64,000 nucleotides of DNA from an uncultured Gammaproteobacteria bacterium (lineage in GTDB: Bacteria; Cyanobacteriota; Vampirovibrionia; Gastranaerophilales; CAZEDP01): NCBI GenBank assembly GCA_964643065.1, contig CAZXPD010000007.1, positions 136 to 64,135 on the forward strand. The letters are read 5' to 3'. Below are positions 931 to 40,677 of this stretch, in pieces (position 1 is the stretch's first letter; the number at the start of each line of letters is the position of its first letter). Under the pieces are notes generated by a model. It was not told the DNA's origin and ran no database searches. It saw only the letters and a program-made list of their open reading frames with translations. The position numbers were made by a program, and so were the translations under genes.

Positions 931-1141
931 TAAGTATATATTGATTTATCGTTCCATACGGCTAAATCAAATATATAGCCGAACCCTAACAGTTTTTAAC
1001 AAGATACTGTTAACTTGATTTATTCGTGAATACTCAAATAAGTTCAATTCATATTACATAATGAATATAAATTAATTTTGTTTCGATTTTTTTTATTAAT
1101 TGTAACAATTTCAAAACATTGGATATAAATTCTTTTTATAG

Positions 1142-3445
1142 CTATACAGAGGGCAGATGAATTGAAAATACAGAGCCATGATTTAGCTTGCTGTTCACGG
1201 ATACATAACCTTTATGAGCCTCAGCAACCAATTTAACGATAGATAACCCAAGACCTGCGCCTCCCGTCTGTCTGTTTCTGGATTTATCTATTCTGTAAAA
1301 TCTCTCGAATATATAATCGAGCTGGCATTGTTCGATGCCGTAGCCCCAATCTCTGACCTGTAATATAATTTCTCCGTCTTTTTCACAACCGGATAATAAA
1401 ACTTTTGAATTTATATCGGAGTACTTTACAGCATTTGATATTAAATTCACGACCGCTTGCTGCAAAAGCAAAAAGTTTGCTTTAATTTCAATATAATCAC
1501 AGCACTCAATTATGAGATGACTTTTTTTGGATTTAATTTCATTTTCTGAAATTTCTGCCGCTCCGTCTAATATATCAATCAGCTTGCATTCTTCTAATGC
1601 TATCTTCCCTTTTCTGGAATTTACTTCAATTTTAGAAATAAAAAGTAAATTTTGTATGATACAGTTTATTCTCGCAACATTTTCATTAATAATTTTGAGA
1701 TACTTAACAGCTTCTGAAGGATTGTATGATTTATCAAGAAGCAGTTCGGAATATCCGCTGATTGTGGTCAAAGGCGTTCTGATTTCGTGCGAAACGTTTG
1801 CCAAAAACTGTGCCTGATTATATAAACTGGCTTCTTTAATGAGCAGTGTCAGATGCTGAGAGATGTTTTCCAACAAATTTATTTCGTTTTCAGTCCACTT
1901 TTTAAATCGCGTGTAAGTTGAGAGAGAAAGGCATCCCCATTTGTTGTCACCGTATTTAAGGGAAATAATTATTAACGATTTAAGGTTGATTTTTAGATAA
2001 TAAGATCTGACTGACTCTGAATCTGTGTATTCGAAAATATTATCAATAACAATAGCATCACTTGACTGTTTGAATTTATCTGTCCAGTGTTTATAGAGCA
2101 TTTCTCTCGTTTTAATATCGGTTTCATTTATGCCGGTAAAATTATTATCGACTTTATATTCTGCAAGATTTGAATGTGTTTCAAAATTATTCTCGAAATT
2201 CTGTACAAATACTCTTTCAACGTCAAAAAAATGTGCAATATCTTTGCATATTGAATTTAGGATATTTTTACCGTCAGAGCAATTTTTAATTTTACCTATT
2301 ATTTTTCTTAATAATTCTTCATTCTCTGCTTTCTGTTTTTCTTTTTGGTAGAGATGAGCCTGATAAAGGGCTATACCGGTTTGATTGGCAAGTACTTTGA
2401 TAAAATCCAATTCTTCGCAAGACAAGAATATTTTTTCTTTAACATAGTTTAGGATTAGCAATCCCATCAATTGTCCCGAATAAAAAATGGGAAGCCTAAT
2501 TCCGCTTTTAAGTTTAGCTTTTTTAAAATATTCGTTTGCTTCCTTGTCATTACTGCTTATTGATGCAGGAATATCCATATTGATAAAATCGCAGTTATTT
2601 TTGTGGTAATGATTCAAATAATCCGTCCATCCTGATTCATTACAAATATCAACTATGCTGTGAATATCCTCAGTTGAGATGTACTCACAATTATTTTCAA
2701 CAGGCAAAAACTTGTCATTCTCAATATCGTAAATTCTCAAAATACAACGGTCAGCACCCAGTGCTTTACCAATTTCACAGACAATATTTGATTTAATTTC
2801 TTCAATATTAAGTGAGCTTCTTATAATATCTGTTATACGGCGCAATAATTGTTCTCTTTCTGCTTGTTTCTTAACGGTAGAGTATAGCTCAGCCTGTTTT
2901 GCCGCAATATTTAACTGGTTTGATATGGATATAACCAGAGATATTTCTTCCTCTGTCCATTTCCTGAAATACTCGTACTCTGACAGAAAAATACCGCCCC
3001 ATATTTCAGCCCCTATGCGCAAAGGCATGCAAAAAAACGACTTAACTCCGATTAACCTGTAGGAATTCTTCACATATTCAGGCAGTGAGGAGTTCGGAAG
3101 GTTTTCGATTAGTACAGGTTCATTTCTTTTAAGAAGTATTTCTGTCCAGTATTCATTTATAGCTCGCTTATCAGGCAGAGAATCCGCTCCTTTGTACAAG
3201 TCACTTACTATATGTTCAATGTAAATAAACGACTTGGAACACATAATTGCATCAAATTTCCATATAGAAGTTCTCTGAACATTTAAAAGAATGGAAACTT
3301 CCTTGCAAATAATTTTTAAAATCTCATCAATATCAAGAGAATTTCTTATGCTGTCGGAAATTAAAGCTAGAATCTTCTCTTTTTCCTCATACATCGATTT
3401 AGAAGCTGCAATACTATTCATTTTGATCCTTAAATCTGTATCCAA
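1142..3445 (-). CDS. Cytoplasmic multi-GAF sensor histidine kinase
   Basis: 767-aa ORF with repeated GAF-like sensory modules. It has the H-box FLANVSHEIRTPL and HATPase motifs (RDWGYGI, GGAGLGLSIV), and no TM segments. The track start at 3445 is TTG. The ATG at 3421 overlapping the regulator stop (ATGAATAG) is the more likely start. Confidence 0.9.
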   Translation of the reverse strand: MDTDLRIKMNSIAASKSMYEEKEKILALISDSIRNSLDIDEILKIICKEVSILLNVQRTSIWKFDAIMCSKSFIYIEHIVSDLYKGADSLPDKRAINEYWTEILLKRNEPVLIENLPNSSLPEYVKNSYRLIGVKSFFCMPLRIGAEIWGGIFLSEYEYFRKWTEEEISLVISISNQLNIAAKQAELYSTVKKQAEREQLLRRITDIIRSSLNIEEIKSNIVCEIGKALGADRCILRIYDIENDKFLPVENNCEYISTEDIHSIVDICNESGWTDYLNHYHKNNCDFINMDIPASISSNDKEANEYFKKAKLKSGIRLPIFYSGQLMGLLILNYVKEKIFLSCEELDFIKVLANQTGIALYQAHLYQKEKQKAENEELLRKIIGKIKNCSDGKNILNSICKDIAHFFDVERVFVQNFENNFETHSNLAEYKVDNNFTGINETDIKTREMLYKHWTDKFKQSSDAIVIDNIFEYTDSESVRSYYLKINLKSLIIISLKYGDNKWGCLSLSTYTRFKKWTENEINLLENISQHLTLLIKEASLYNQAQFLANVSHEIRTPLTTISGYSELLLDKSYNPSEAVKYLKIINENVARINCIIQNLLFISKIEVNSRKGKIALEECKLIDILDGAAEISENEIKSKKSHLIIECCDYIEIKANFLLLQQAVVNLISNAVKYSDINSKVLLSGCEKDGEIILQVRDWGYGIEQCQLDYIFERFYRIDKSRNRQTGGAGLGLSIVKLVAEAHKGYVSVNSKLNHGSVFSIHLPSV

Positions 3446-28021: not shown

Positions 28022-29104
28022 ATGAAACAAATACTCGACTACTCAAAGCTCTTTGATATTCTTAGAGATGTATATTCCGCTTTACCTTGTTATTTAGGAC
28101 ACGGTCATTCTTTTCCGCCTCTCAGATATTCACTTGAGCTGACCTACAAATGCAACCTGAACTGTCCCTTTTGCTATATCGGCGAATCAAGGAACAAAAA
28201 CGAACTAAACCCTGAGGAATGGCTGAATCTAATAAAACAAATTCCGCCGTGGAGTCTGATTACTCTAGTGGGAGGCGAACCTCTCGCAAGAAAAGATTTC
28301 CCGGAAATCTTTTCCGCTGCGGCAAGAAGAGCAAAAGTAAACGTGGTAACTAACGGTGTTCTTTTAAATGAAGATATTATTGATCTTTTTATTAGTAGCA
28401 AGCTCTTATTGCTTAGCGTCTCTCTTGACGGTTACGGTAAAAATCATGACAAGAACCGCGGGAAAGAAGGCATATTTGAAACTATCATGAGCAATCTTGA
28501 AAAACTCAATTCTAAAAGGCAGGGTAAGAATCGCCCAATGGTGGATATTAAGACAATTGTTCTTGAAAACAACCTTGATGATTTGATAAAAATTTACAAA
28601 CTATGCGCTGAAATGAATTTTGAATTTATGTCCATAGCATTTCTCAGGGCAAATAATTTAAAACAAAATTCAGTCCTTAGAGAGAGCTTTGGTGAAGAGT
28701 TTTATAAAACTCAATATGATATCAAACCGTATTTTGATATCGAGCATTTTAAGGAGGTTTATAAAGAGCTCAACGCACTTTCAAATAAAGCTACGACAAC
28801 TGTCAGATTCGCTCCAAAATTTCCTTCAAATAATGAACTGAACCAAATAGAGAAATTTTTTGCAAATAGTGACAAGTGCGAGTCAGAAATTTATAATCCA
28901 TGCCTTTATCCATGGTCTAATATTCATATAAACCCTGAAGGTGATATCTATCCCTGTTTAGCATATAAAATAGGTAATGTAAGAAATACGGGCATCATGG
29001 AAGTATGGAACAGCAGGAAATTCGCTAATTTTAGAAACAAACTTAAGAAACAAAAAGTATTTTCGGCATGCCAAATGTGCTGTGAACTTAAGGTAAAGAA
29101 GTAA
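28022..29104 (+). CDS. Radical SAM enzyme with a C-terminal SPASM/twitch-like Cys cluster
   Basis: 360 aa with CNLNCPFC (CxxxCxxC) and a GGEPL motif. C-terminal cysteines lie at CLYPWSNIHINPEGDIYPC ... CQMCC. Confidence 0.85.
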   Translation: MKQILDYSKLFDILRDVYSALPCYLGHGHSFPPLRYSLELTYKCNLNCPFCYIGESRNKNELNPEEWLNLIKQIPPWSLITLVGGEPLARKDFPEIFSAAARRAKVNVVTNGVLLNEDIIDLFISSKLLLLSVSLDGYGKNHDKNRGKEGIFETIMSNLEKLNSKRQGKNRPMVDIKTIVLENNLDDLIKIYKLCAEMNFEFMSIAFLRANNLKQNSVLRESFGEEFYKTQYDIKPYFDIEHFKEVYKELNALSNKATTTVRFAPKFPSNNELNQIEKFFANSDKCESEIYNPCLYPWSNIHINPEGDIYPCLAYKIGNVRNTGIMEVWNSRKFANFRNKLKKQKVFSACQMCCELKVKK

Positions 29105-29114
29105 AGCTAAAATT

Positions 29115-30536
29115 ATGGAAAAGAAAAAAATATTATTAATATATCCGCCAAGCGGAATAATGAATAGAGAAGACAGATGTCAACAGCCGGTAAAGGAGCT
29201 TATTGTTATTCCTCCTCTGCCGCCGACTGATTTGCTCTATATGGCTGCCATAGCCGAAAAAGCCGGTTGCAACGCAATGGTTAAGGATTACAGTCTTGAT
29301 GCTCAAACAGGAATTGATTTAGTCAGAGACCTTAATGAGTTCAAACCGGATTTTATTGTTATAAACGTAACCACACCCACAATTAAAAGCGACCTTCAGT
29401 ACTGCACAATTGCAAAAGAAATCCTGCCCTCGATTCAAATCATTGCCAAAGGTGCACACTTTCTGACCTTTGCTGAAGAGACTTTAAAAGCATTTCCGAA
29501 TTTGGACTTTGCAATTAAAGGCGAGCCTGAGCTGACTCTCGAAGAACTTCTTAACGGCAAAAATGCCCAAGACATTAAGGGATTAGTTTGGAGAAACAAA
29601 GATAAAATAATAATCAACCCCGACAGAGCGTTTAATGAAGATTTAGATTCACTGCCCTATCCTGCAAGACATCTGGTAGATAATTCTCGTTTCAGACGTC
29701 CCGATAACAACAGGGTGCAAGCGGTAATAAAAGTTTCAAGAGGCTGTCCGTATCATTGTTTCTTCTGCCTTGCAACGCCGGTTTCAGGAAAGAAAGTCAG
29801 GACAAGAAGTCCTGAAAATATTTTAGGCGAAATTAAAGAATGCATCGAAAAATATAATATAAGAGATTTTATATTCTGGTCGGATATTTTCAATTTTGAC
29901 AGAAATTGGGCTGTTGAACTTTGCGAAGCCATCATAAAATCGGGACTGAAATTCACATGGGCTGCCAATACCAGAGCAGATACCGCAGATTTGGAACTGG
30001 CAAAACTCATGTACAAAGCCGGCTGCAGACTCGTCAGTATCGGCGTTGAAAGCGGCAATCAGGAAATGCTTGATAAAATGGGTAAAAAAACTACCCTTGA
30101 GCAGATACGGCAAACCGTTAATGATTTTAAAAAAGCCGGTATGAAAATTTATAACTATTTTGTCATCGGGCTTCCATGGGAAACAGAAGAAACAGTCAAT
30201 GATACCGTTGATTTTGCGATAGAGCTGAACAGTGATTTCATCAATTTTTATACGGCTGTCGCATTCCCGGGAACAAAATTTTACAATTATGCAGTTGAAA
30301 ATAGTCTTGCTGACTCATCAAACGTGTTAGAATTATTTAATGATGTATATTATTATCCGGTTACAAGCGGTCATCATTTAAGTAAAGAAAGGATATTTGA
30401 ACTTCATAAAAAAGCGGTAAAAAAGTATTACCTGAGACCTGAATTTATACTTAAAACGCTGCTATCCATACGCTCAATCAAAGAATTTCAAAACTATACA
30501 AAAGCAGCATTAGCAATAATAAGAAAAAGTGACTAA
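29115..30536 (+). CDS. B12-binding-domain radical SAM enzyme (class B)
   Basis: 473 aa with an N-terminal Rossmann-like B12-binding region (ILLIYPP.., DFIVINVTTP) and a radical SAM motif CPYHCFFC. It lies 10 nt downstream of the preceding radical SAM gene. Confidence 0.88.
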   Translation: MEKKKILLIYPPSGIMNREDRCQQPVKELIVIPPLPPTDLLYMAAIAEKAGCNAMVKDYSLDAQTGIDLVRDLNEFKPDFIVINVTTPTIKSDLQYCTIAKEILPSIQIIAKGAHFLTFAEETLKAFPNLDFAIKGEPELTLEELLNGKNAQDIKGLVWRNKDKIIINPDRAFNEDLDSLPYPARHLVDNSRFRRPDNNRVQAVIKVSRGCPYHCFFCLATPVSGKKVRTRSPENILGEIKECIEKYNIRDFIFWSDIFNFDRNWAVELCEAIIKSGLKFTWAANTRADTADLELAKLMYKAGCRLVSIGVESGNQEMLDKMGKKTTLEQIRQTVNDFKKAGMKIYNYFVIGLPWETEETVNDTVDFAIELNSDFINFYTAVAFPGTKFYNYAVENSLADSSNVLELFNDVYYYPVTSGHHLSKERIFELHKKAVKKYYLRPEFILKTLLSIRSIKEFQNYTKAALAIIRKSD

Positions 30537-30597: not shown

Positions 30598-31854
30598 ATG
30601 ATAAATAAGACGACATTTCCAAACGGTTTAAGACTGATAACCGAATATATGCCCGAGACATATTCAGCAACTGTTATGGTTTGGATTGATGCGGGTACGA
30701 ATGTAGAAAAGGCCGAGCATAACGGTATTTCACATTTTATAGAACATCTTGTATTTAAAGGAACAACAAATCGCACATCAAAGGATATTGTGCAGACAAT
30801 AGAATGCACCGGCGGAAGTATAAATGCATTTACTGACAAAGAAACTACCTGTTATTATGCAAAAGTGCTCGGGAAAGACACTGCAACGGCAGTTGACATT
30901 TTGCTCGATATGACATTTAACTCCAAATTCGAGGATCATGATATTGAGCTTGAAAGACAGGTTATACTTGAAGAAATCAAGATGTATGAAGATGCGCCCG
31001 ATGAACTTGTTCATGACCTTTTAATTAAATCATTCTGGGATGAGCACCCGCTTGCAAGACCTATTACAGGTTCGATAAAAACTGTAAAAAACATAACAAG
31101 GAATGATATTTTAAACTTTGCAAACGACTACTACACTCCCGACAACATAATTATTTCAGTTGCAGGCAATTTTAATGAAGAAGAAATCATTAATCTTATC
31201 AAAGATTTCACAGAAAATATCAACAGCAGATGTAAAATCAGACAAGATATCCTACCTGTTGCAAAGCCGTTAATTAATGTTAAAAGAAAAGACATAGAAC
31301 AGGCTCATATTTGTATCGGCACCAAAGCAGTTTCCGTCCTCGATAAAGACAGATATGCGCTGGCAATAATTGACGTTTGTTTAGGCGGCGGAATGTCATC
31401 AAGGCTGTTTCAGACAATCAGAGAGCAGCGGGGACTTGCCTATTCCATCAACACATACGAAGCTCTTTATCGTCCGTCAGGGATATTCGGTATTTATTCA
31501 GGAGTTAACAGCCAAAACGTTAATGAGGTTATTCAATTAACTTATGAAGAAATAGAGAAATTTAAATCCGAGGGACCTGCTGAGGAAGAATTCATTCAGG
31601 CAAAAGAACAGCTCAAAGGAAGCCTTTTAATCGGGCTTGAATCCACTAAATACAGAGCAGGAAGAAACGGCAGATCAGAATTGTACTTTAACAAAATCAT
31701 CAATGCCGAGGAGCTCTGCTCTGAAATTGACAACGTATCAACAGTTGACATTAAGAGAATGGGCGATTACATTTTTAACGAAACTTCAACAGCGGTTTAT
31801 ATACTTGCTCCGAAAAGTTACAAACACAGGGGGGGAAACTTTGGCAGAAATTGA
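30598..31854 (+). CDS. M16 (pitrilysin-family) zinc peptidase
   Basis: 418 aa with the inverted zinc motif HFIEH (HxxEH) and a downstream E (LEEIKMYED). Confidence 0.9.
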   Translation: MINKTTFPNGLRLITEYMPETYSATVMVWIDAGTNVEKAEHNGISHFIEHLVFKGTTNRTSKDIVQTIECTGGSINAFTDKETTCYYAKVLGKDTATAVDILLDMTFNSKFEDHDIELERQVILEEIKMYEDAPDELVHDLLIKSFWDEHPLARPITGSIKTVKNITRNDILNFANDYYTPDNIIISVAGNFNEEEIINLIKDFTENINSRCKIRQDILPVAKPLINVKRKDIEQAHICIGTKAVSVLDKDRYALAIIDVCLGGGMSSRLFQTIREQRGLAYSINTYEALYRPSGIFGIYSGVNSQNVNEVIQLTYEEIEKFKSEGPAEEEFIQAKEQLKGSLLIGLESTKYRAGRNGRSELYFNKIINAEELCSEIDNVSTVDIKRMGDYIFNETSTAVYILAPKSYKHRGGNFGRN

Positions 31855-32284
31855 ACTTAAAATCCACAAATTACCCAATAACTTCAGCATGCCATCATAC
31901 GCAACAGCAGGCGCAGCAGGAATGGATTTGACGGCAGGAATATCCGAAACAATAACATTAAAACCTTTTGAACGAAAACTTATTCCGACAGGTATAATTA
32001 TCGAACTCCCGTCGGGTTATGAAGCGCAAGTTCGCCCCCGCTCAGGTTTAGCAATAAAATTCGGAATATCATTATCCAACTGCGTTGGTACAATTGATGA
32101 GGATTACAGAGGCGAAGTCTGTGTAGGATTGATAAACTTATCATCCGAAGATTATACAATCCATCCCGGTGACAGAATAGCTCAAATGATTATCTCACCG
32201 GTTCAGCGCGTTAAAATTACGGAAGTAAAAGAATTAAGTTCAACAGAGCGTTCATCCGGCGGATTTGGTTCAACAGGAAGATAA
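31841..32284 (+). CDS. dut: dUTP diphosphatase
   Basis: AGAAGMDL, RPRSGL, GTIDEDYRGE and C-terminal SSGGFGSTG motifs. The probable TTG start at 31841 follows a G-rich ribosome-binding site and overlaps the peptidase stop. The track start at 31637 is an in-frame read-through inside the peptidase gene. Confidence 0.9.
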   Translation: MAEIELKIHKLPNNFSMPSYATAGAAGMDLTAGISETITLKPFERKLIPTGIIIELPSGYEAQVRPRSGLAIKFGISLSNCVGTIDEDYRGEVCVGLINLSSEDYTIHPGDRIAQMIISPVQRVKITEVKELSSTERSSGGFGSTGR

Positions 32285-32521
32285 TATTTTTTTACAAAGT
32301 TTTTTGTTTTTGTAGGCAAAACTCAATTGAGCTGCGAAAACATCTAGGATAAATTCTGTAATAAATTATGCCCCATAATATATTGACAACTAACGAGACT
32401 ATACCAAAGATAATCTCTGTTTATTATCAATTTTATAAAAATATGCAAATAGGAATTAAATATGATATACTGTTTTTCTTAAAAAGTTCTAAGGTATGGT
32501 TAGCTACAAGAGGGTTTGGAA

Positions 32522-32704
32522 ATGGAAGAAGAAAAAAGAATGACTCAGCATCAAATGCCGCAGGAAGAAGAAATGTCTTCAAAAGAAGAAAATCAATGCA
32601 ATCATTGGCATTCTGAAGCTACAAATTCCTGTTCCGGAAGGTGTATGCTCAAAGCCAATCATTCTTCAAACCATGGCTGCGGAATTTGCCACGGTCAATG
32701 GTAA
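32522..32704 (+). CDS. Small acidic-leader, Cys/His-rich peptide (60 aa)
   Basis: The ATG at 32522 is preceded by AGAGGG 7-8 nt upstream. There is an extended -10-like TGATATACT near 32464-32472, and a strong terminator follows directly. Sequence: MEEEKRMTQHQMPQEEEMSSKEENQCNHWHSEATNSCSGRCMLKANHSSNHGCGICHGQW. Confidence 0.5.
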   Translation: MEEEKRMTQHQMPQEEEMSSKEENQCNHWHSEATNSCSGRCMLKANHSSNHGCGICHGQW

Positions 32705-32725
32705 AAAATTATCCGTAAACTTGAA

Positions 32726-32751
32726 GAGCAGGCGTTATGCCTGCTCTTTTT
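32726..32751. terminator. Bidirectional intrinsic terminator
   Basis: GAGCAGGC-GTTAT-GCCTGCTC followed by TTTTT. It is shared with the convergent minus-strand ORF. Confidence 0.75.
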
Positions 32752-32754
32752 AAT

Positions 32755-32985
32755 TTAATAAGACTGCTGTTCGCGCAGTACAATAAAGAATTTACTCATT
32801 TGAACAAGATGGTTCATGCCGTTATACACTGATTTTGAGTTACTTCCAGTATCCTGCGCTGATGCAGAATCATCGTCAGAGAGTATAATGCCTCTCCTTT
32901 CCAGCTGTTTCAATATCTGTTCATCAATTTGGCTGCCCATTTTAGAAATATCTAAATTAATCATTTTTTCACTTCCGGTTTCCAT
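32755..32985 (-). CDS. Small hypothetical protein (76 aa; possible start at MINLDISK)
   Basis: An ORF between a terminator and an AT-rich promoter region. I see no recognisable motif. Confidence 0.4.
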   Translation of the reverse strand: METGSEKMINLDISKMGSQIDEQILKQLERRGIILSDDDSASAQDTGSNSKSVYNGMNHLVQMSKFFIVLREQQSY

Positions 32986-34354: not shown

Positions 34355-34852
34355 ATGACAGAATTTTCAAGCAGCGACTTAAAAGCAAGACTTGCTCAAA
34401 TACAAATAGAACTCAATCATTCAGAAAATCTTGAAAAAAATCTTACGGAAAAATTATCTGACGAAGAAAAGGAATTTATTGCACAAAACCGCATCAGATA
34501 TACTGATCTGGTAATTGAAGCAAACGACATTGAAAATCTTTTAGGCAGCAAAGGGGAAACAATATCTATTGATGAGCTCAAGCAAAAATATGCCGGTATA
34601 AAGGAGCTGTTAGCCGATCCCAAGCCGAGAGAGGCTTCGAATGCACTTGAGCAACGTGCAAAAAGATGCTGGACAAGATGCGTAACTTGCATTTCCTGTA
34701 CAACATGCATTACCAATTCAGGTCTTCGTCCAAATGAACATTTCTGCTACCCTGCAGGATCGAGAGAATACATCTGTAATCCTAAATCTGAAACTACGGG
34801 TCAATATGAAAATGGTAAAATTGAAGACCTGAAAATCAAATGGAACAAATAA
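34355..34852 (+). CDS. Candidate RiPP precursor or radical SAM substrate protein (165 aa) with a Cys-free helical leader and a Cys-rich C-terminal region
   Basis: Strong ribosome-binding site GGAGGAA. All 7 Cys lie in the last 61 aa. Core block RCWTRCVTCISCTTCIT lies at 34664-34714. The next gene starts 11 nt after the stop. Confidence 0.65.
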   Translation: MTEFSSSDLKARLAQIQIELNHSENLEKNLTEKLSDEEKEFIAQNRIRYTDLVIEANDIENLLGSKGETISIDELKQKYAGIKELLADPKPREASNALEQRAKRCWTRCVTCISCTTCITNSGLRPNEHFCYPAGSREYICNPKSETTGQYENGKIEDLKIKWNK

Positions 34853-34863
34853 GTTTATAAGTT

Positions 34864-36315
34864 ATGATAATTACCGAAAATAAATTTCTTCGTCTCTCAG
34901 ACAACTGGCGTCTCAGAGTTGAAGGAGGACATTCAATATTATATTCTTATGATCCCGAGGTTCTTGTGTGGTATCCACTGTCAAAAGAAATGACAGCCGG
35001 TCTTCTGTTAATGGACGGCAAAAAGACATTAAGCGAAATCAAAAAAATATTGCTGTTTCTATTTGATGATGTACCTGAAACATTCATAAAAGAACTTCTC
35101 GAAAGCCTTATGCTGCTTTCGTCGAATGAACAAAACCCAAATCACATTGTAGAATATTCTGACTTAGCGTTTTCAGAAACTCACAGATATGATATTGAAA
35201 ATATACTCAAAAAGATGCAAACTTACACACAGGAAGAATATGACAGAGTTGAATCTGGATTATTGCTTTCACCGTTAAATTTAACTATTATGCCGACTGA
35301 AAAATGCTTTACAAACTGTGTATACTGCTATTCCCAACGAAAAGAAACAAAAACCGACGAAATGCTTTCTCTCGAGAGATGGTTTGAAATTATTGACGAG
35401 GCTTCTGAGTTGGGAATTGAACTGGCAGTCCTGACCGGCGGAGATCCAATGGCATATCCTCATATAATACCCCTGCTCCAAAAGCTCATAGAAAAAGGAT
35501 TTTTGTTTGTAATACCGTCCAAATCATTTATTTCTAAAGAACTTGCACAGAGAATGGCTGATATCGGTATGAGGAAAGCATGGAATCAGATAAGCATAGA
35601 TGCCGTTTCCAACGATATTGCAAAGAAAATGGTCGGGGTTGAGAATTATGCAGAATTAGCTTTCGAATCAATTCAAAACATGATTGAGGCAGGTTTAAAT
35701 GTAAGAGCCAACTGTGTAATGACGCCTATTAACTGTTCAGAGGCACTGGAACTTGTAAAAAAATTAGACGAACTCGGTGTAAAAAAAATCAGCATCGCAG
35801 GTTACGGAAGGTCCTATTACCGTCATAACGACGATTTATTTCTTACCGATGAGCAGATGGAAGTTATTAACTCTGCTGTTGATTCAATAAAGAATGAATT
35901 GAATGCAGAAATAAGCTGCAATATGTCTCGAAGAGATTATAGCGATGCATCTGTCGAACAAAGAACGCAAGAATGGAAAGAACGAGCAAAATGCTCAGGC
36001 GGTCGTTCAAGCATGGTAATAGCTCCGTCCGGAAAAGTTACACTATGCGAACAAATGCCCTGTGAAGACGAATTCTTCGCAGGAGATCTAAGTCATCAAA
36101 GCATTATGGAAATATGGAATTCAGAGCGTATAAAATTCCTGATGGCTCCTCCCGTAGAAATGTTTAAAGGAACAGCATGCGAAAAATGCGAAGACTATGA
36201 AAAATGCATGAATTACTATGGATATTGCTTCAGAGACGCACTGTTTACATACAACACAGTTTACTCTCCCCCTCCGAATTGCCCTAAAGCACCACCGGGC
36301 ATTCGTTTGCAATAA
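34864..36315 (+). CDS. Radical SAM/SPASM peptide-modifying enzyme with an N-terminal PqqD-like RRE domain
   Basis: 483 aa. The N-terminal ~90 aa resemble a PqqD-like recognition element (..LSKEMTAGLLLMDGKKTLSEIKKIL..). It has the radical SAM motif CFTNCVYC and C-terminal SPASM cysteines (CSGGRSSMVIAPSGKVTLC, CEKCEDYEKCMNYYGYC). Confidence 0.88.
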   Translation: MIITENKFLRLSDNWRLRVEGGHSILYSYDPEVLVWYPLSKEMTAGLLLMDGKKTLSEIKKILLFLFDDVPETFIKELLESLMLLSSNEQNPNHIVEYSDLAFSETHRYDIENILKKMQTYTQEEYDRVESGLLLSPLNLTIMPTEKCFTNCVYCYSQRKETKTDEMLSLERWFEIIDEASELGIELAVLTGGDPMAYPHIIPLLQKLIEKGFLFVIPSKSFISKELAQRMADIGMRKAWNQISIDAVSNDIAKKMVGVENYAELAFESIQNMIEAGLNVRANCVMTPINCSEALELVKKLDELGVKKISIAGYGRSYYRHNDDLFLTDEQMEVINSAVDSIKNELNAEISCNMSRRDYSDASVEQRTQEWKERAKCSGGRSSMVIAPSGKVTLCEQMPCEDEFFAGDLSHQSIMEIWNSERIKFLMAPPVEMFKGTACEKCEDYEKCMNYYGYCFRDALFTYNTVYSPPPNCPKAPPGIRLQ

Positions 36316-36369: not shown

Positions 36370-38508
36370 CTAAATCTTAAATACCGAAATAAACTTTTTA
36401 AGATTTTCGGCAATTTTTTCAAGAGAACCAGAATTATTGGTAATTTCCTTTAATGTAGTTCCTTGTTCTGTTGTAATAACGGAAATCTCTTTTGTACCCT
36501 GCTCAACTCTGGCAGTAACGGCAGATATAGTTTCCATATTCTTTACAACTTTATCCGAGTTAGTTACCAGCTCATTTGCAATACTGGAAACTTCCGAAGC
36601 CATGCCATTTACGTCTTTAGAAACATTCAGAATTTCTTTGAGAGCTCCGCCGACACTTGAAATTGTGACAACGCCGTCATCAATTTCTTTATTACTTTCT
36701 ACCATTGATTTTACGACGGTTTGAGTTTTATCCTGAATGTGTTTAATCATAGATGTAATATTATCTGTTGCTTTAGCTGACTGGTCCGCAAGTTTTTTAA
36801 CTTCATCGGCGACAACCGCAAAGCCTTTACCGTGTTCACCTGCTCTGGCTGCTTCAATAGCTGCGTTCAAAGCAAGAAGATTTGTCTGACCGGCAATGTT
36901 TTTGATTAAATCTACGATTTGACCGATGTCAGCGCTTAGTGTGCCCAACTCATCAACAGTAGCTGACGTTTCTACCGATGAATGTTTAATCTGATTAATT
37001 TTATCGACAGCTTTATCTGCCTGTTCACCGCTTTTAGCAGCAGTATCACAAGCAAGTCCCGCAAGTTCCACAACTTTAATGGCATTTTCACAAATTTTTT
37101 GAATAACATCATTCATAACATTGATGTCATCCAGAATTAGCGTAATTTTTGTTGCCTGATCCTGAGAACCTTTAGAAAGTTCGCCGACTTTTATTCCTAC
37201 ATTTTGCGCGCCTTTTGCGGTTCGCTCAGCAGCATGACCGACAATGGCAGATTCAGTAATGACTTCATCAACACTTTCATTTACTTTTTTAATAAATCCT
37301 CTTACTTGTTCGGTTAAAGTATTCAATGCAATTGCTACCTGACCGACTTCATCTTGTGAAAATACTTTAACTTCCTTAATTTGGATATGACCTGAAGTAT
37401 CCTTTTCAATACCTTTAAGGATTTCATGTATTGATGCAACTATTTTCCCGCTTACAACAATAAAAATCGGAACAACAATTGCTATAAGTATGATTATGGT
37501 TACGATAAATTTACTTAAGAAATTATTTTTAATAATATCCATAAGTTTCTTTTCTGACATTGCGGTAAACAAACAACCTATTACTTGATTATCAGAGTTC
37601 TTAACAGGGCTGTAAAATGACCAGAACGGGTTGCCGACAACCATAGCTCTGCCTACAAAATCAGAACCGCCTATGAGAACCTTATCAACGACTTTTTCCG
37701 AGAGAAGAGTTCCCACTGCTCTGTTACCGTCTGGCTTCACCACGGTTGTTGCTATTCTTAAATCATCCTGAAATATTGTAACCGCAATTCCGTCGTTATC
37801 GGCTTTAACTGAATCAACAAGCTCAAGATTTCTGTTCATTAAGGAACCTGCTGCAACAGCTCCTACAACCTGACCTGAATTATTTTTAATAGCGGTTATT
37901 ACAATATTAACCAATGCATCTTCGTTGAGTTTTTCTCCGCCGCGAAAATCCTTTTTAGCGCCTTCTGTGTGTGCTTTTTGCATTTTTGCCCGTTCATATA
38001 GTTCTTTATTTTCTTTTAGCAAGTCATCCTTCAAAACAATCTCGTAAGATGTTATTGTTTCTTTATTTGTCATTGCCTTCTTCAAAAGTTTGTCTAAACT
38101 CGCAAACTTACCGCCGCTTCTTGAGGGATTATTATAGTCAGCAATAATTTTTCCGTTTTTATCAACAACGAAAAATATATCTGTTGTTTTATTCTTAGCT
38201 ATCGGCATAACGTGATTTTGTAATACGGAATAGTCTCCGTTTACAATAGAATTTACCGATAAATCAGCATTTGCAATGAACTCAGTCCCTTGTTTTAATT
38301 CAGAACGCTCTTCCAGGAGTTTCTGTTGAAGAATTCTGTAATATATTTGAGCATCTGTTACAGCAACCTTTTCCGTAAACTGTACAAAACTGTTAAATAC
38401 CGAATAAGATATAACGCCAATGGTTAATAGAATTGAAATGATACCCAGCAATAAAATTTTAGACTTAATTGACATATTATTAAGTCTGCTTAAACCCTTC
38501 ACCGACAT
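36370..38508 (-). CDS. Methyl-accepting chemotaxis protein with a periplasmic Cache-type sensor and HAMP domain
   Basis: 712 aa with two TM segments flanking a ~300-aa sensor. The highly conserved signalling hairpin [34 protein letters not shown] is present. Confidence 0.93.
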
Positions 38509-39789: not shown

Positions 39790-40677
39790 TCATACGAGGA
39801 TATGTTCAATGTACCCGTCTCCAAAACCGTCTGACTGATTATCAAAATAATCATTAATAAAAATCGATGCCGTTTCATTATGATTTGCTTCCTGCAGAGT
39901 TATTTCCGCTGTACGCAGGATTTCAATTTCAGTTTCGGTAAAGTTAATCAGAAGACTGTCCAAATAGCCGTTCTGGTCGTTATCCATAGAAACATATTCA
40001 ATAATTATGTTGTCATTCAAAGTAGTCAAATCAAGAGTATCTTCGCCGCCAACATCTCTGATAATGTCATTGCCGAAATCCGCTGAAAAGTAGCCTTGAT
40101 ATGTATCGTTCCCATGGTCCCCTGCAAGCCAGTCATTGCCCGTTGCTCCTACAAGTATGTTTGCACCGTCATTTCCGCCTAAATGATTGTTTAGACTGTT
40201 TCCAACTAGATTGATATCGCCGTTTCCCGTTAATTTTATATTCTCAACATTGGCAGGCATCAAATAACTTGCCGAACTATAAACAAAATCAATTCCCTGT
40301 GCTTCGTCTTCCAGTACTATGTCATCCGAATTATTGACATAATAAGTATCATTTCCTTGTCCGCCAATCATTACATCTATACCGGCTCCTCCGTCAAGCA
40401 TGTCATTTCCGTCATTGCCGTATAAAGTATCCTCACCGGAGCATCCCTTGAGCCAATCATCTCCTTCATTTCCCGCCAGAGCATCATTTCCGTTCCTGCC
40501 GGATATGTTGTCATTGCCAAGTCCTCCGGATAGCCCGTCATTACCTTCTCCGCCAATAACCAAATCATTGCCTTCAAAGGCTAATATTTTGTCATCTCCT
40601 TCCAAACCGTTTATGAAATCGTTATCCAACGTGCCGTTCAGTGTATCATCACCCGATGTTCCTATTATCAAAGCCAT
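39790..40677 (-). CDS. RTX-type calcium-binding repeat protein
   Basis: 295 aa with more than 10 tandem GGxGxDxL/I nonapeptide repeats (GGEGNDGLSGGLGNDNISGRNGNDALAGNEGDD..). It has no N-terminal signal peptide. Confidence 0.85.
   Translation of the reverse strand: MALIIGTSGDDTLNGTLDNDFINGLEGDDKILAFEGNDLVIGGEGNDGLSGGLGNDNISGRNGNDALAGNEGDDWLKGCSGEDTLYGNDGNDMLDGGAGIDVMIGGQGNDTYYVNNSDDIVLEDEAQGIDFVYSSASYLMPANVENIKLTGNGDINLVGNSLNNHLGGNDGANILVGATGNDWLAGDHGNDTYQGYFSADFGNDIIRDVGGEDTLDLTTLNDNIIIEYVSMDNDQNGYLDSLLINFTETEIEILRTAEITLQEANHNETASIFINDYFDNQSDGFGDGYIEHILV

Follow-up and report, generated by a model that had tools for sequence, protein, structure and literature searches.

What does a 60-codon open reading frame encode when it stands between a block and a cassette of radical SAM genes in the chromosome of an uncultured bacterium of Melainabacteria/Gastranaerophilales-like affinity? 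We addressed this question for one such frame in a 64,000-nucleotide stretch of DNA, the whole of which is called the window here. An initial annotation had described a stand-alone 60-aa peptide with an acidic leader and a Cys/His-rich tail, and had offered two readings of it, namely the precursor of a RiPP or a small metal-binding protein. Its translation and residue counts are exact, with 8 Glu among residues 1-25 and 5 Cys, 5 His and 2 Trp among residues 26-60. The explanation that we favour, with a probability of roughly 0.6, is that the gene is monocistronic and specifies a cytoplasmic micro-protein made of a metal-stabilised mini-domain, probably with two Zn, and a disordered tail. The features on which the argument depends are as follows.

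32442-32471, plus strand: predicted promoter-like element, read from the sequence and compared among relatives
32442-47, plus strand: weak -35 hexamer, ATGCAA, about 3 of 6 consensus matches
32463-64 and 32466-71, plus strand: predicted extended -10, TG and TATACT respectively
32510-32514, plus strand: Shine-Dalgarno-like GAGGG, 7 nt 5' of the peptide ATG
32522-32704, plus strand: peptide ORF of 60 codons, ATG to TAA, product MEEEKRMTQHQMPQEEEMSSKEENQCNHWHSEATNSCSGRCMLKANHSSNHGCGICHGQW
32522-32596, plus strand: codons 1-25, a variable hydrophilic N-terminal tail, predicted to be disordered and acidic in the window clade only
32597-32704, plus strand: codons 26-60 and stop, the conserved Cys/His core, a putative metal-binding mini-domain
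32723-32749, probably both strands: intrinsic terminator hairpin, 12-bp stem with 6 GC pairs, T run

The signals that the initial annotation ascribed to the gene (its own ribosome-binding site, an extended -10-like element and a strong terminator) were all recovered. The GAGGG lies within a segment, AGAGGGTT, that does not vary among the five aligned loci (the window, L001, L003, L005 and L006), and a TTG two codons 5' of the ATG would leave an unusable spacing to it. The extended -10 (TGnTATACT) is identical in L001 and L003 and reads TGaCATAAT in L005, in intergenic DNA that has otherwise diverged; a generic promoter scan missed it because the -35 is weak. The terminator hairpin has a dG of -18.9 kcal/mol (z -6.1) and is probably bidirectional, given its position between the peptide gene and a convergent 76-aa gene (32755-32985, minus strand). 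Hairpins unrelated to it in sequence follow the peptide gene in L001, L005, L013 and L094, such that a terminator is found behind the gene in five lineages in all. Upstream, an inverted repeat with Fur-box-like half-sites (GATAAT-N8-ATTATC, 32409-32430, plus strand) sits just 5' of the promoter and is not kept in L001 or L005, and a search for an operator motif common to the upstream regions of the different clades found none.

The peptide ORF is a real gene under strong purifying selection, as the initial annotation had supposed. Across the 35 core codons, comparison with close relatives (including L013) by the Nei-Gojobori method gave pN values of 0.04-0.17 against pS values of 0.80-1.07, which are saturated, and the ratio of the two is 0.03-0.19 in the core and 0.39-0.92 in the tail. 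Aligned DNA from the window, L001, L003, L005 and L006 shows that core substitutions fall mostly at third codon positions, and the reading frame is kept in seven homologous loci, with tail indels that are multiples of three. One could argue that the frame is no gene at all and arose by chance, or that it crosses an sRNA or leader in which reading frame is irrelevant, given that it is short, unannotated and has no family match. Its 10 Cys and His per 35 residues are the six-frame maximum of the window, and two non-coding frames equal this density, so composition alone proves nothing and it is conservation that decides. The substitution pattern and in-frame indels effectively refute the idea of a non-gene, and with homologues at 31-71% identity in unrelated genomes and phages, and no Rfam match in the gene region, we regard its likelihood as close to nil.

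The family to which the peptide belongs is very rare and unannotated. We gathered it in two steps: HMMER was run exhaustively against 1.84 billion representative proteins, and a profile was then searched against 5.8 billion proteins. Only 14 clusters emerged, every one of 55-67 aa; two HMMER matches (P0006 and P0010) were dropped as repeat or low-complexity false positives. Public data hold an exact copy of the peptide and two close variants, P0002 (68% identical) and P0003 (56%). A DNA scan with the back-translated ligand pattern added seven metagenome loci, all from a phage clade, whilst the other 11 metagenome matches and the single IMG/VR match were attributed to chance. When the window and L001-L101 were read in six frames, the pattern was confined to members of the family. 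Its carriers are phages and bacteria, the latter being uncultured Melainabacteria-like organisms and one other lineage. A three-sequence alignment used as query against genome and metagenome contigs returned nothing, P0004 had no match in IMG/VR or among phages in GenBank, and a search of phages and plasmids with P0001 gave nothing relevant. Pfam, NCBIfam, PHROG and PADLOC contain no significant match to the family, and our literature search found no paper that prints the ligand motif or describes these proteins.

The 14 members divide into a conserved core and a variable tail. The core follows the pattern C-x3-H-x6-C-x3-C-x5-H-x3-H-x-C-x2-C with a Trp or Phe at its end, in which C26, H30, C37, G39, C41, H47, H51 and C53 are invariant and C56 and S36 are each present in 13 of the 14. 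P0008, the only member to lack C56, has a His at the next position, in line with the Cys-to-His swaps seen at metal sites. The conserved ligand set thus comprises eight positions, 5 Cys and 3 His, within 31 residues; H28 and H57 of the window copy are not conserved. Non-ligand positions of the core are also largely fixed (W/Y29, S/T31, S36, S38, G39, R40 and W/F60). In the tail, Met1 is the only invariant column, and net charge varies among members from -8 to +5, the phage clade being Lys-rich there. Hydrophobic segments and signal peptides are absent throughout the family, the highest 9-residue Kyte-Doolittle mean being at most 1.06.

Eight potential ligands, fixed small and aromatic residues between them and a freely varying tail together point to a metal-stabilised mini-domain with a disordered extension. 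That the peptide binds metal, as the second reading of the initial annotation had it, is suggested by the conservation of the eight Cys/His positions over the 14 clusters, and we consider it quite probable; the loose likeness to SmtA which that annotation mentioned did not survive, for reasons given below. The product would be a soluble cytoplasmic micro-protein made from a monocistronic gene, in which a hydrophilic tail of 20-30 residues, evolving freely and probably disordered, precedes a mini-domain of 35 residues that is stabilised by metal ions bound at C26, H30, C37, C41, H47, H51, C53 and C56. These ligands would make up two tetrahedral sites, most likely for Zn(II), around which W/Y29, S/T31, S36, S38, G39, R40 and W/F60 would pack, though we put the chance that there are indeed two Zn sites at about even. 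The ligands may be grouped sequentially (CHCC and HHCC), nested (C2H2 and CHCC) or cross-braced, as a C4 ribbon with a CH3 site. Structure prediction with AF2 gave a mean pLDDT of 58.6 for the model from the full-length alignment, with residues 1-23 below 50, and of 46.7 for the core alone, and this low confidence makes both models unusable for assigning ligands to sites. The only element in the former, itself of low confidence, is a beta-hairpin formed by residues 28-31 and 36-39.

Among characterised proteins, those closest in kind are the C(P)XCG micro-proteins of Haloferax volcanii, HVO_2753 (PDB 6YDH) and HVO_0758, which are likewise shorter than 70 aa, cytoplasmic and stand-alone, with one or two Cys/His sites and short tails, and which function through partner binding, as we propose for the peptide. 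The likeness is one of kind, as there is no sequence homology, the carriers differ (haloarchaea in the one case, Melainabacteria-like and other bacteria and phages in the other), and the C5H3 ligands of the peptide (C-x3-H, C-x3-C, H-x3-H and C-x2-C) contrast with the paired C(P)XCG knuckles of the Haloferax proteins. Although its length of 55-67 aa would fit, the family lacks the C(P)XCG motif pair, the window copy having CSGRC and CGICH and some members a single CGxCG. A Foldseek search of the PDB with the low-confidence AF2 model gave nothing at E below 3.8; its non-significant top matches were archaeal ribosome chains and HVO_2753, the latter at rank 3 (E 4.9, probability 0.06). Studies of the Haloferax proteins show that predicted zinc-finger micro-proteins may bind Zn, bind Co/Ni or stay metal-free, and that AF2 cannot discriminate among these cases (PMC11241148). 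By profile search there was no significant PDB match either, the only protein to turn up being the eL37 zinc ribbon (E 0.24), in an alignment that pairs C37, C41, H47, H51, C53 and C56 through SC-x-RC...H-x3-H-x-C-x2-C. From this non-significant alignment, C37, C41, C53 and C56 could be read as a ribbon-type C4 site, but eL37 differs in its first knuckle (C-x2-C rather than C-x3-C) and spacer (14 rather than 11 residues), and it has no equivalent of the C26/H30 segment.

The neighbours of the gene bear on both readings of the initial annotation, which had proposed that homologues be sought in relatives and their surroundings recorded. This exercise showed the ORF to be conserved in frame, but in contexts unrelated to one another:

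Window and L001-L004: dut, peptide, convergent gene of 69-76 aa, cfa, in that order
L005: peptide, 143-aa homologue of the convergent gene, cfa, in that order
L013: peptide beside a divergent NUDIX gene
L007, L008 and the P0013 contig: peptide 50 nt after a Fer2 and MoCoBD oxidoreductase gene, same strand
L097: peptide beside a convergent PLP enzyme gene
L009, L010, L095, L096, L103 and L120: peptide among phage genes (small and large terminase, portal, Bro-N, ParB-like nuclease)

Most copies are monocistronic, with flanking genes mostly on the opposite strand, and no neighbour recurs across clades among the loci examined. The order of peptide, convergent gene and cfa is the only synteny that reaches L005. 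The convergent 76-aa ORF is itself a real conserved gene, 70% identical in L001-L004. It has a terminator in common with the peptide gene, and neither Pfam nor NCBIfam matches its product; its 143-aa homologue in L005 agrees with it at both termini (MxxxxISKxGSQIDEQI... and ...KFFxVxRxQ) and carries about 70 aa of inserted sequence. In the nearest reference MAGs ('Cyanobacteria bacterium' and 'Candidatus Melainabacteria', whose S9 and RpoA are 70-76% identical to those of the window host), neither the peptide nor the downstream synteny occurs within 10 kb of rpsI.

The RiPP reading deserves a full hearing at this locus, where three radical SAM genes and an M16 peptidase gene do lie within 4.5 kb of the peptide. 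It would have an acidic leader direct the cross-linking or methylation of a Cys-rich core by a radical SAM enzyme (28022-30536 or 34864-36315, both plus strand), with trimming by the M16 peptidase. The distances given by the initial annotation hold, the M16 gene being 0.67 kb and the cassette of a 165-aa ORF and a radical SAM gene 1.65 kb away, and the radical SAM/M16 synteny is kept in L001-L004. SCIFF/ranthipeptide and sactipeptide precursors resemble the peptide in size (about 50-60 aa) and in having a hydrophilic N-terminal part ahead of a Cys-rich C-terminal one, and in the window clade, though in that clade only, it too has radical SAM/SPASM genes within a few kb. Nor is a conserved core foreign to RiPPs, PQQ and mycofactocin being products of this sort. 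Against this, radical SAM genes accompany the peptide in the syntenic clade alone; neither they nor any other maturase gene were found near the homologues in five other contexts, and L007/L008, L009/L010, L013, L097, L103 and L120 have no radical SAM gene nearby. The supposed leader is the least conserved part of the protein, its charge changes sign between clades and it is Lys-rich elsewhere. The peptide has neither the conserved maturase nor the conserved N-terminal part of the SCIFF and sactipeptide systems; it matches no precursor HMM either (no NCBIfam family at E<=0.01, and none in Pfam for the window protein). Three invariant His, and the nearby His of the member that lacks C56, fit metal ligation and not thioether chemistry. 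The peptide gene has its own predicted promoter and terminator, with dut intervening between it and the upstream block, and two genes, one of them convergent, before the downstream cassette. As for dut, a mechanical ORF list gives it 215 aa from a TTG start (31637-32284, plus strand) and an overlap of more than 200 nt with the M16 gene, but its L001 counterpart (147 aa, 92% identity) places the real start at 31841. The overlap with the M16 stop is then 14 nt (8 nt in L001), from which the two genes look co-transcribed and the M16 gene does not look like that of a peptidase dedicated to the peptide. Nor do the radical SAM genes appear to need the peptide. The co-distribution of enzyme and peptide was surveyed for one of them, rSAM360 (28022-29104, radical SAM/SPASM, 360 aa), which proved widespread where the peptide is lacking: it has 716 homologues (E<=1e-30) and over 100 clusters at about 60% identity, set against 14 peptide clusters. 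Homologues of rSAM360 are labelled Candidatus Gastranaerophilales, and in L098-L101 orthologues of 61-64% identity stand among rpsL/rpsG, BioY, a GNAT gene, rpsT and sometimes Glycos_transf_3, with no B12 radical SAM, M16 gene or (within 10 kb) peptide; the family looks housekeeping-like in Gastranaerophilales. The HpnJ/BchE-like B12-binding radical SAM gene after rSAM360 (247 bits to HpnJ, below the cut-off) occurs in the window clade only. Downstream, rSAM483 (34864-36315; 483 aa, radical SAM/SPASM with a 130-residue N-terminal extension) has a Cys-rich ORF of its own, 12 nt upstream, which specifies 165 aa with a C-terminal part reading CWTRCVTCISCTTCITNSG...FCYPAG...YICNP. The pair (34355-36315, plus strand) is conserved at 90% and 85% in L001 and looks like a self-contained precursor-maturase pair; the 165-aa protein has no family match and no similarity to the peptide was found. 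We therefore set the RiPP reading aside as highly improbable. It is a remote possibility that, as a still rarer variant, the adjacent radical SAM enzymes have come to use the peptide as a substrate in the window clade alone.

If the peptide binds metal, it need not do so for the sake of its fold, and it might instead buffer, store or deliver metal in the manner of a metallothionein or a Ni/Cu/Zn carrier. Counting the clade-specific H28 and H57, 10 of the 35 core residues of the window copy are potential ligands, its acidic tail, likewise specific to the clade, might contribute a weak affinity for metal, and Cys-motif micro-proteins sometimes bind Co/Ni and not Zn (PMC11241148). Here belongs the proposal of the initial annotation that the GCGxCHG end loosely recalls cyanobacterial metallothioneins. 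SmtA/BmtA (PF02069) are indeed small and Cys/His-rich, come from the wider cyanobacterial lineage and have a C-terminal GC-x-x-CHG-like ending, but they arrange 9 Cys and 2 His round a Zn4 cluster where the peptide family has 5 Cys and 3 conserved His, and the His of the window 'CHG' is the non-conserved H57. The resemblance also fails at the level of profiles, as none of the 14 members matches PF02069 or any other Pfam family at E<=10, and hhalign of the family against SmtA gave a probability of 0.16%. With only five Cys a thiolate cluster is unlikely, the conserved non-ligand residues suggest a fixed fold, no metal transporter, regulator or riboswitch adjoins any family member, and phage copies beside terminase genes would be hard to explain, so we think a storage role rather unlikely. 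More doubtful still is a small Fe-S ([2Fe-2S] or [4Fe-4S]) or redox-active protein with redox-switch disulfides. Five conserved Cys with C-x3-C and C-x2-C pairs, one clade directly after a Fer2/MoCoBD oxidoreductase gene and the presence of WhiB among the non-significant Foldseek matches would be in keeping with it; against it, five Cys and three invariant His make eight ligands, which exceeds the need of one cluster, the Rieske-like C-x-H and C-x-x-C-H features depend on H28 and H57, and no ferredoxin, Rieske or Wbl HMM matches. Three further assignments were considered and rejected. A c-type cytochrome lacks support in the absence of a hydrophobic N-terminus and in the divergence of the window CGICH, which reads CGSCG, CDSCS or CDFCY in other members; the Rieske-like and CXXCH (heme c) readings rest on H28 and H57, neither of them conserved, and there is no signal peptide; and a PHROG HNH family is matched by 4 of 14 members only (E 0.066), with no Pfam HNH match. 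An HNH core would not fit into the 11 residues that separate the Cys pairs.

On the preferred reading of a metal-stabilised mini-domain, the folded domain would not be a substrate of enzymatic modification; it would serve as a self-contained module that binds or regulates a partner, be it protein or nucleic acid. We infer this from a gene that is monocistronic, has no fixed neighbours and is also borne by phages, and we hold it as a tentative suggestion. In the clade where the gene follows the Fer2/MoCoBD oxidoreductase gene pair (aldehyde oxidase/IorAB-type), the peptide could be an accessory subunit, a role suggested by gene position there that does not generalise to the window. The genome concerned (L007 7171-10174, L008 and the P0013 contig) is of high GC content and rich in glycoside hydrolases. 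Members of the phage clade (METTKKETKATNETPGKK...CGSCGEEW) were located in L009 (5735-5935), L103 (about 950-1120, minus strand), L120 (about 1585-1755, minus strand), L095/L114, L115, L117, L106 and L119, where the gene is a lone opposite-strand gene beside the small and large terminase genes, or beside genes for a ParB-like nuclease or DNA modification. About 160 nt upstream of it are nearly identical between contigs with different downstream neighbours (a ClpP-like protease in one case, Bro-N in the other). A more adventurous idea, which we regard as unlikely, is that a previously unrecognised two-metal mini-fold moves between phages and bacteria, modulates a conserved cellular machine or takes part in defence or take-over, and has been domesticated in this Melainabacteria-like chromosome.

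These findings suggest no new biological principle. They do remove a tempting RiPP assignment from a locus that truly contains radical SAM genes, and they define, by coordinates and ligand signature, a micro-protein family of a sort (small and Cys/His-rich) that is routinely missed in annotation. The C5H3 signature, with two probable metal sites per 35 residues, also makes the peptide a compact target for synthesis, metal analysis and NMR.

Elsewhere in the window, a 295-aa protein with RTX-type HemolysinCabind repeats (39790-40677, minus strand) is encoded alongside a flavin reductase-like protein and a Cache-domain chemoreceptor (36370-38508). The set is syntenic in L001-L003 and is unusual for a Melainabacteria-like genome.
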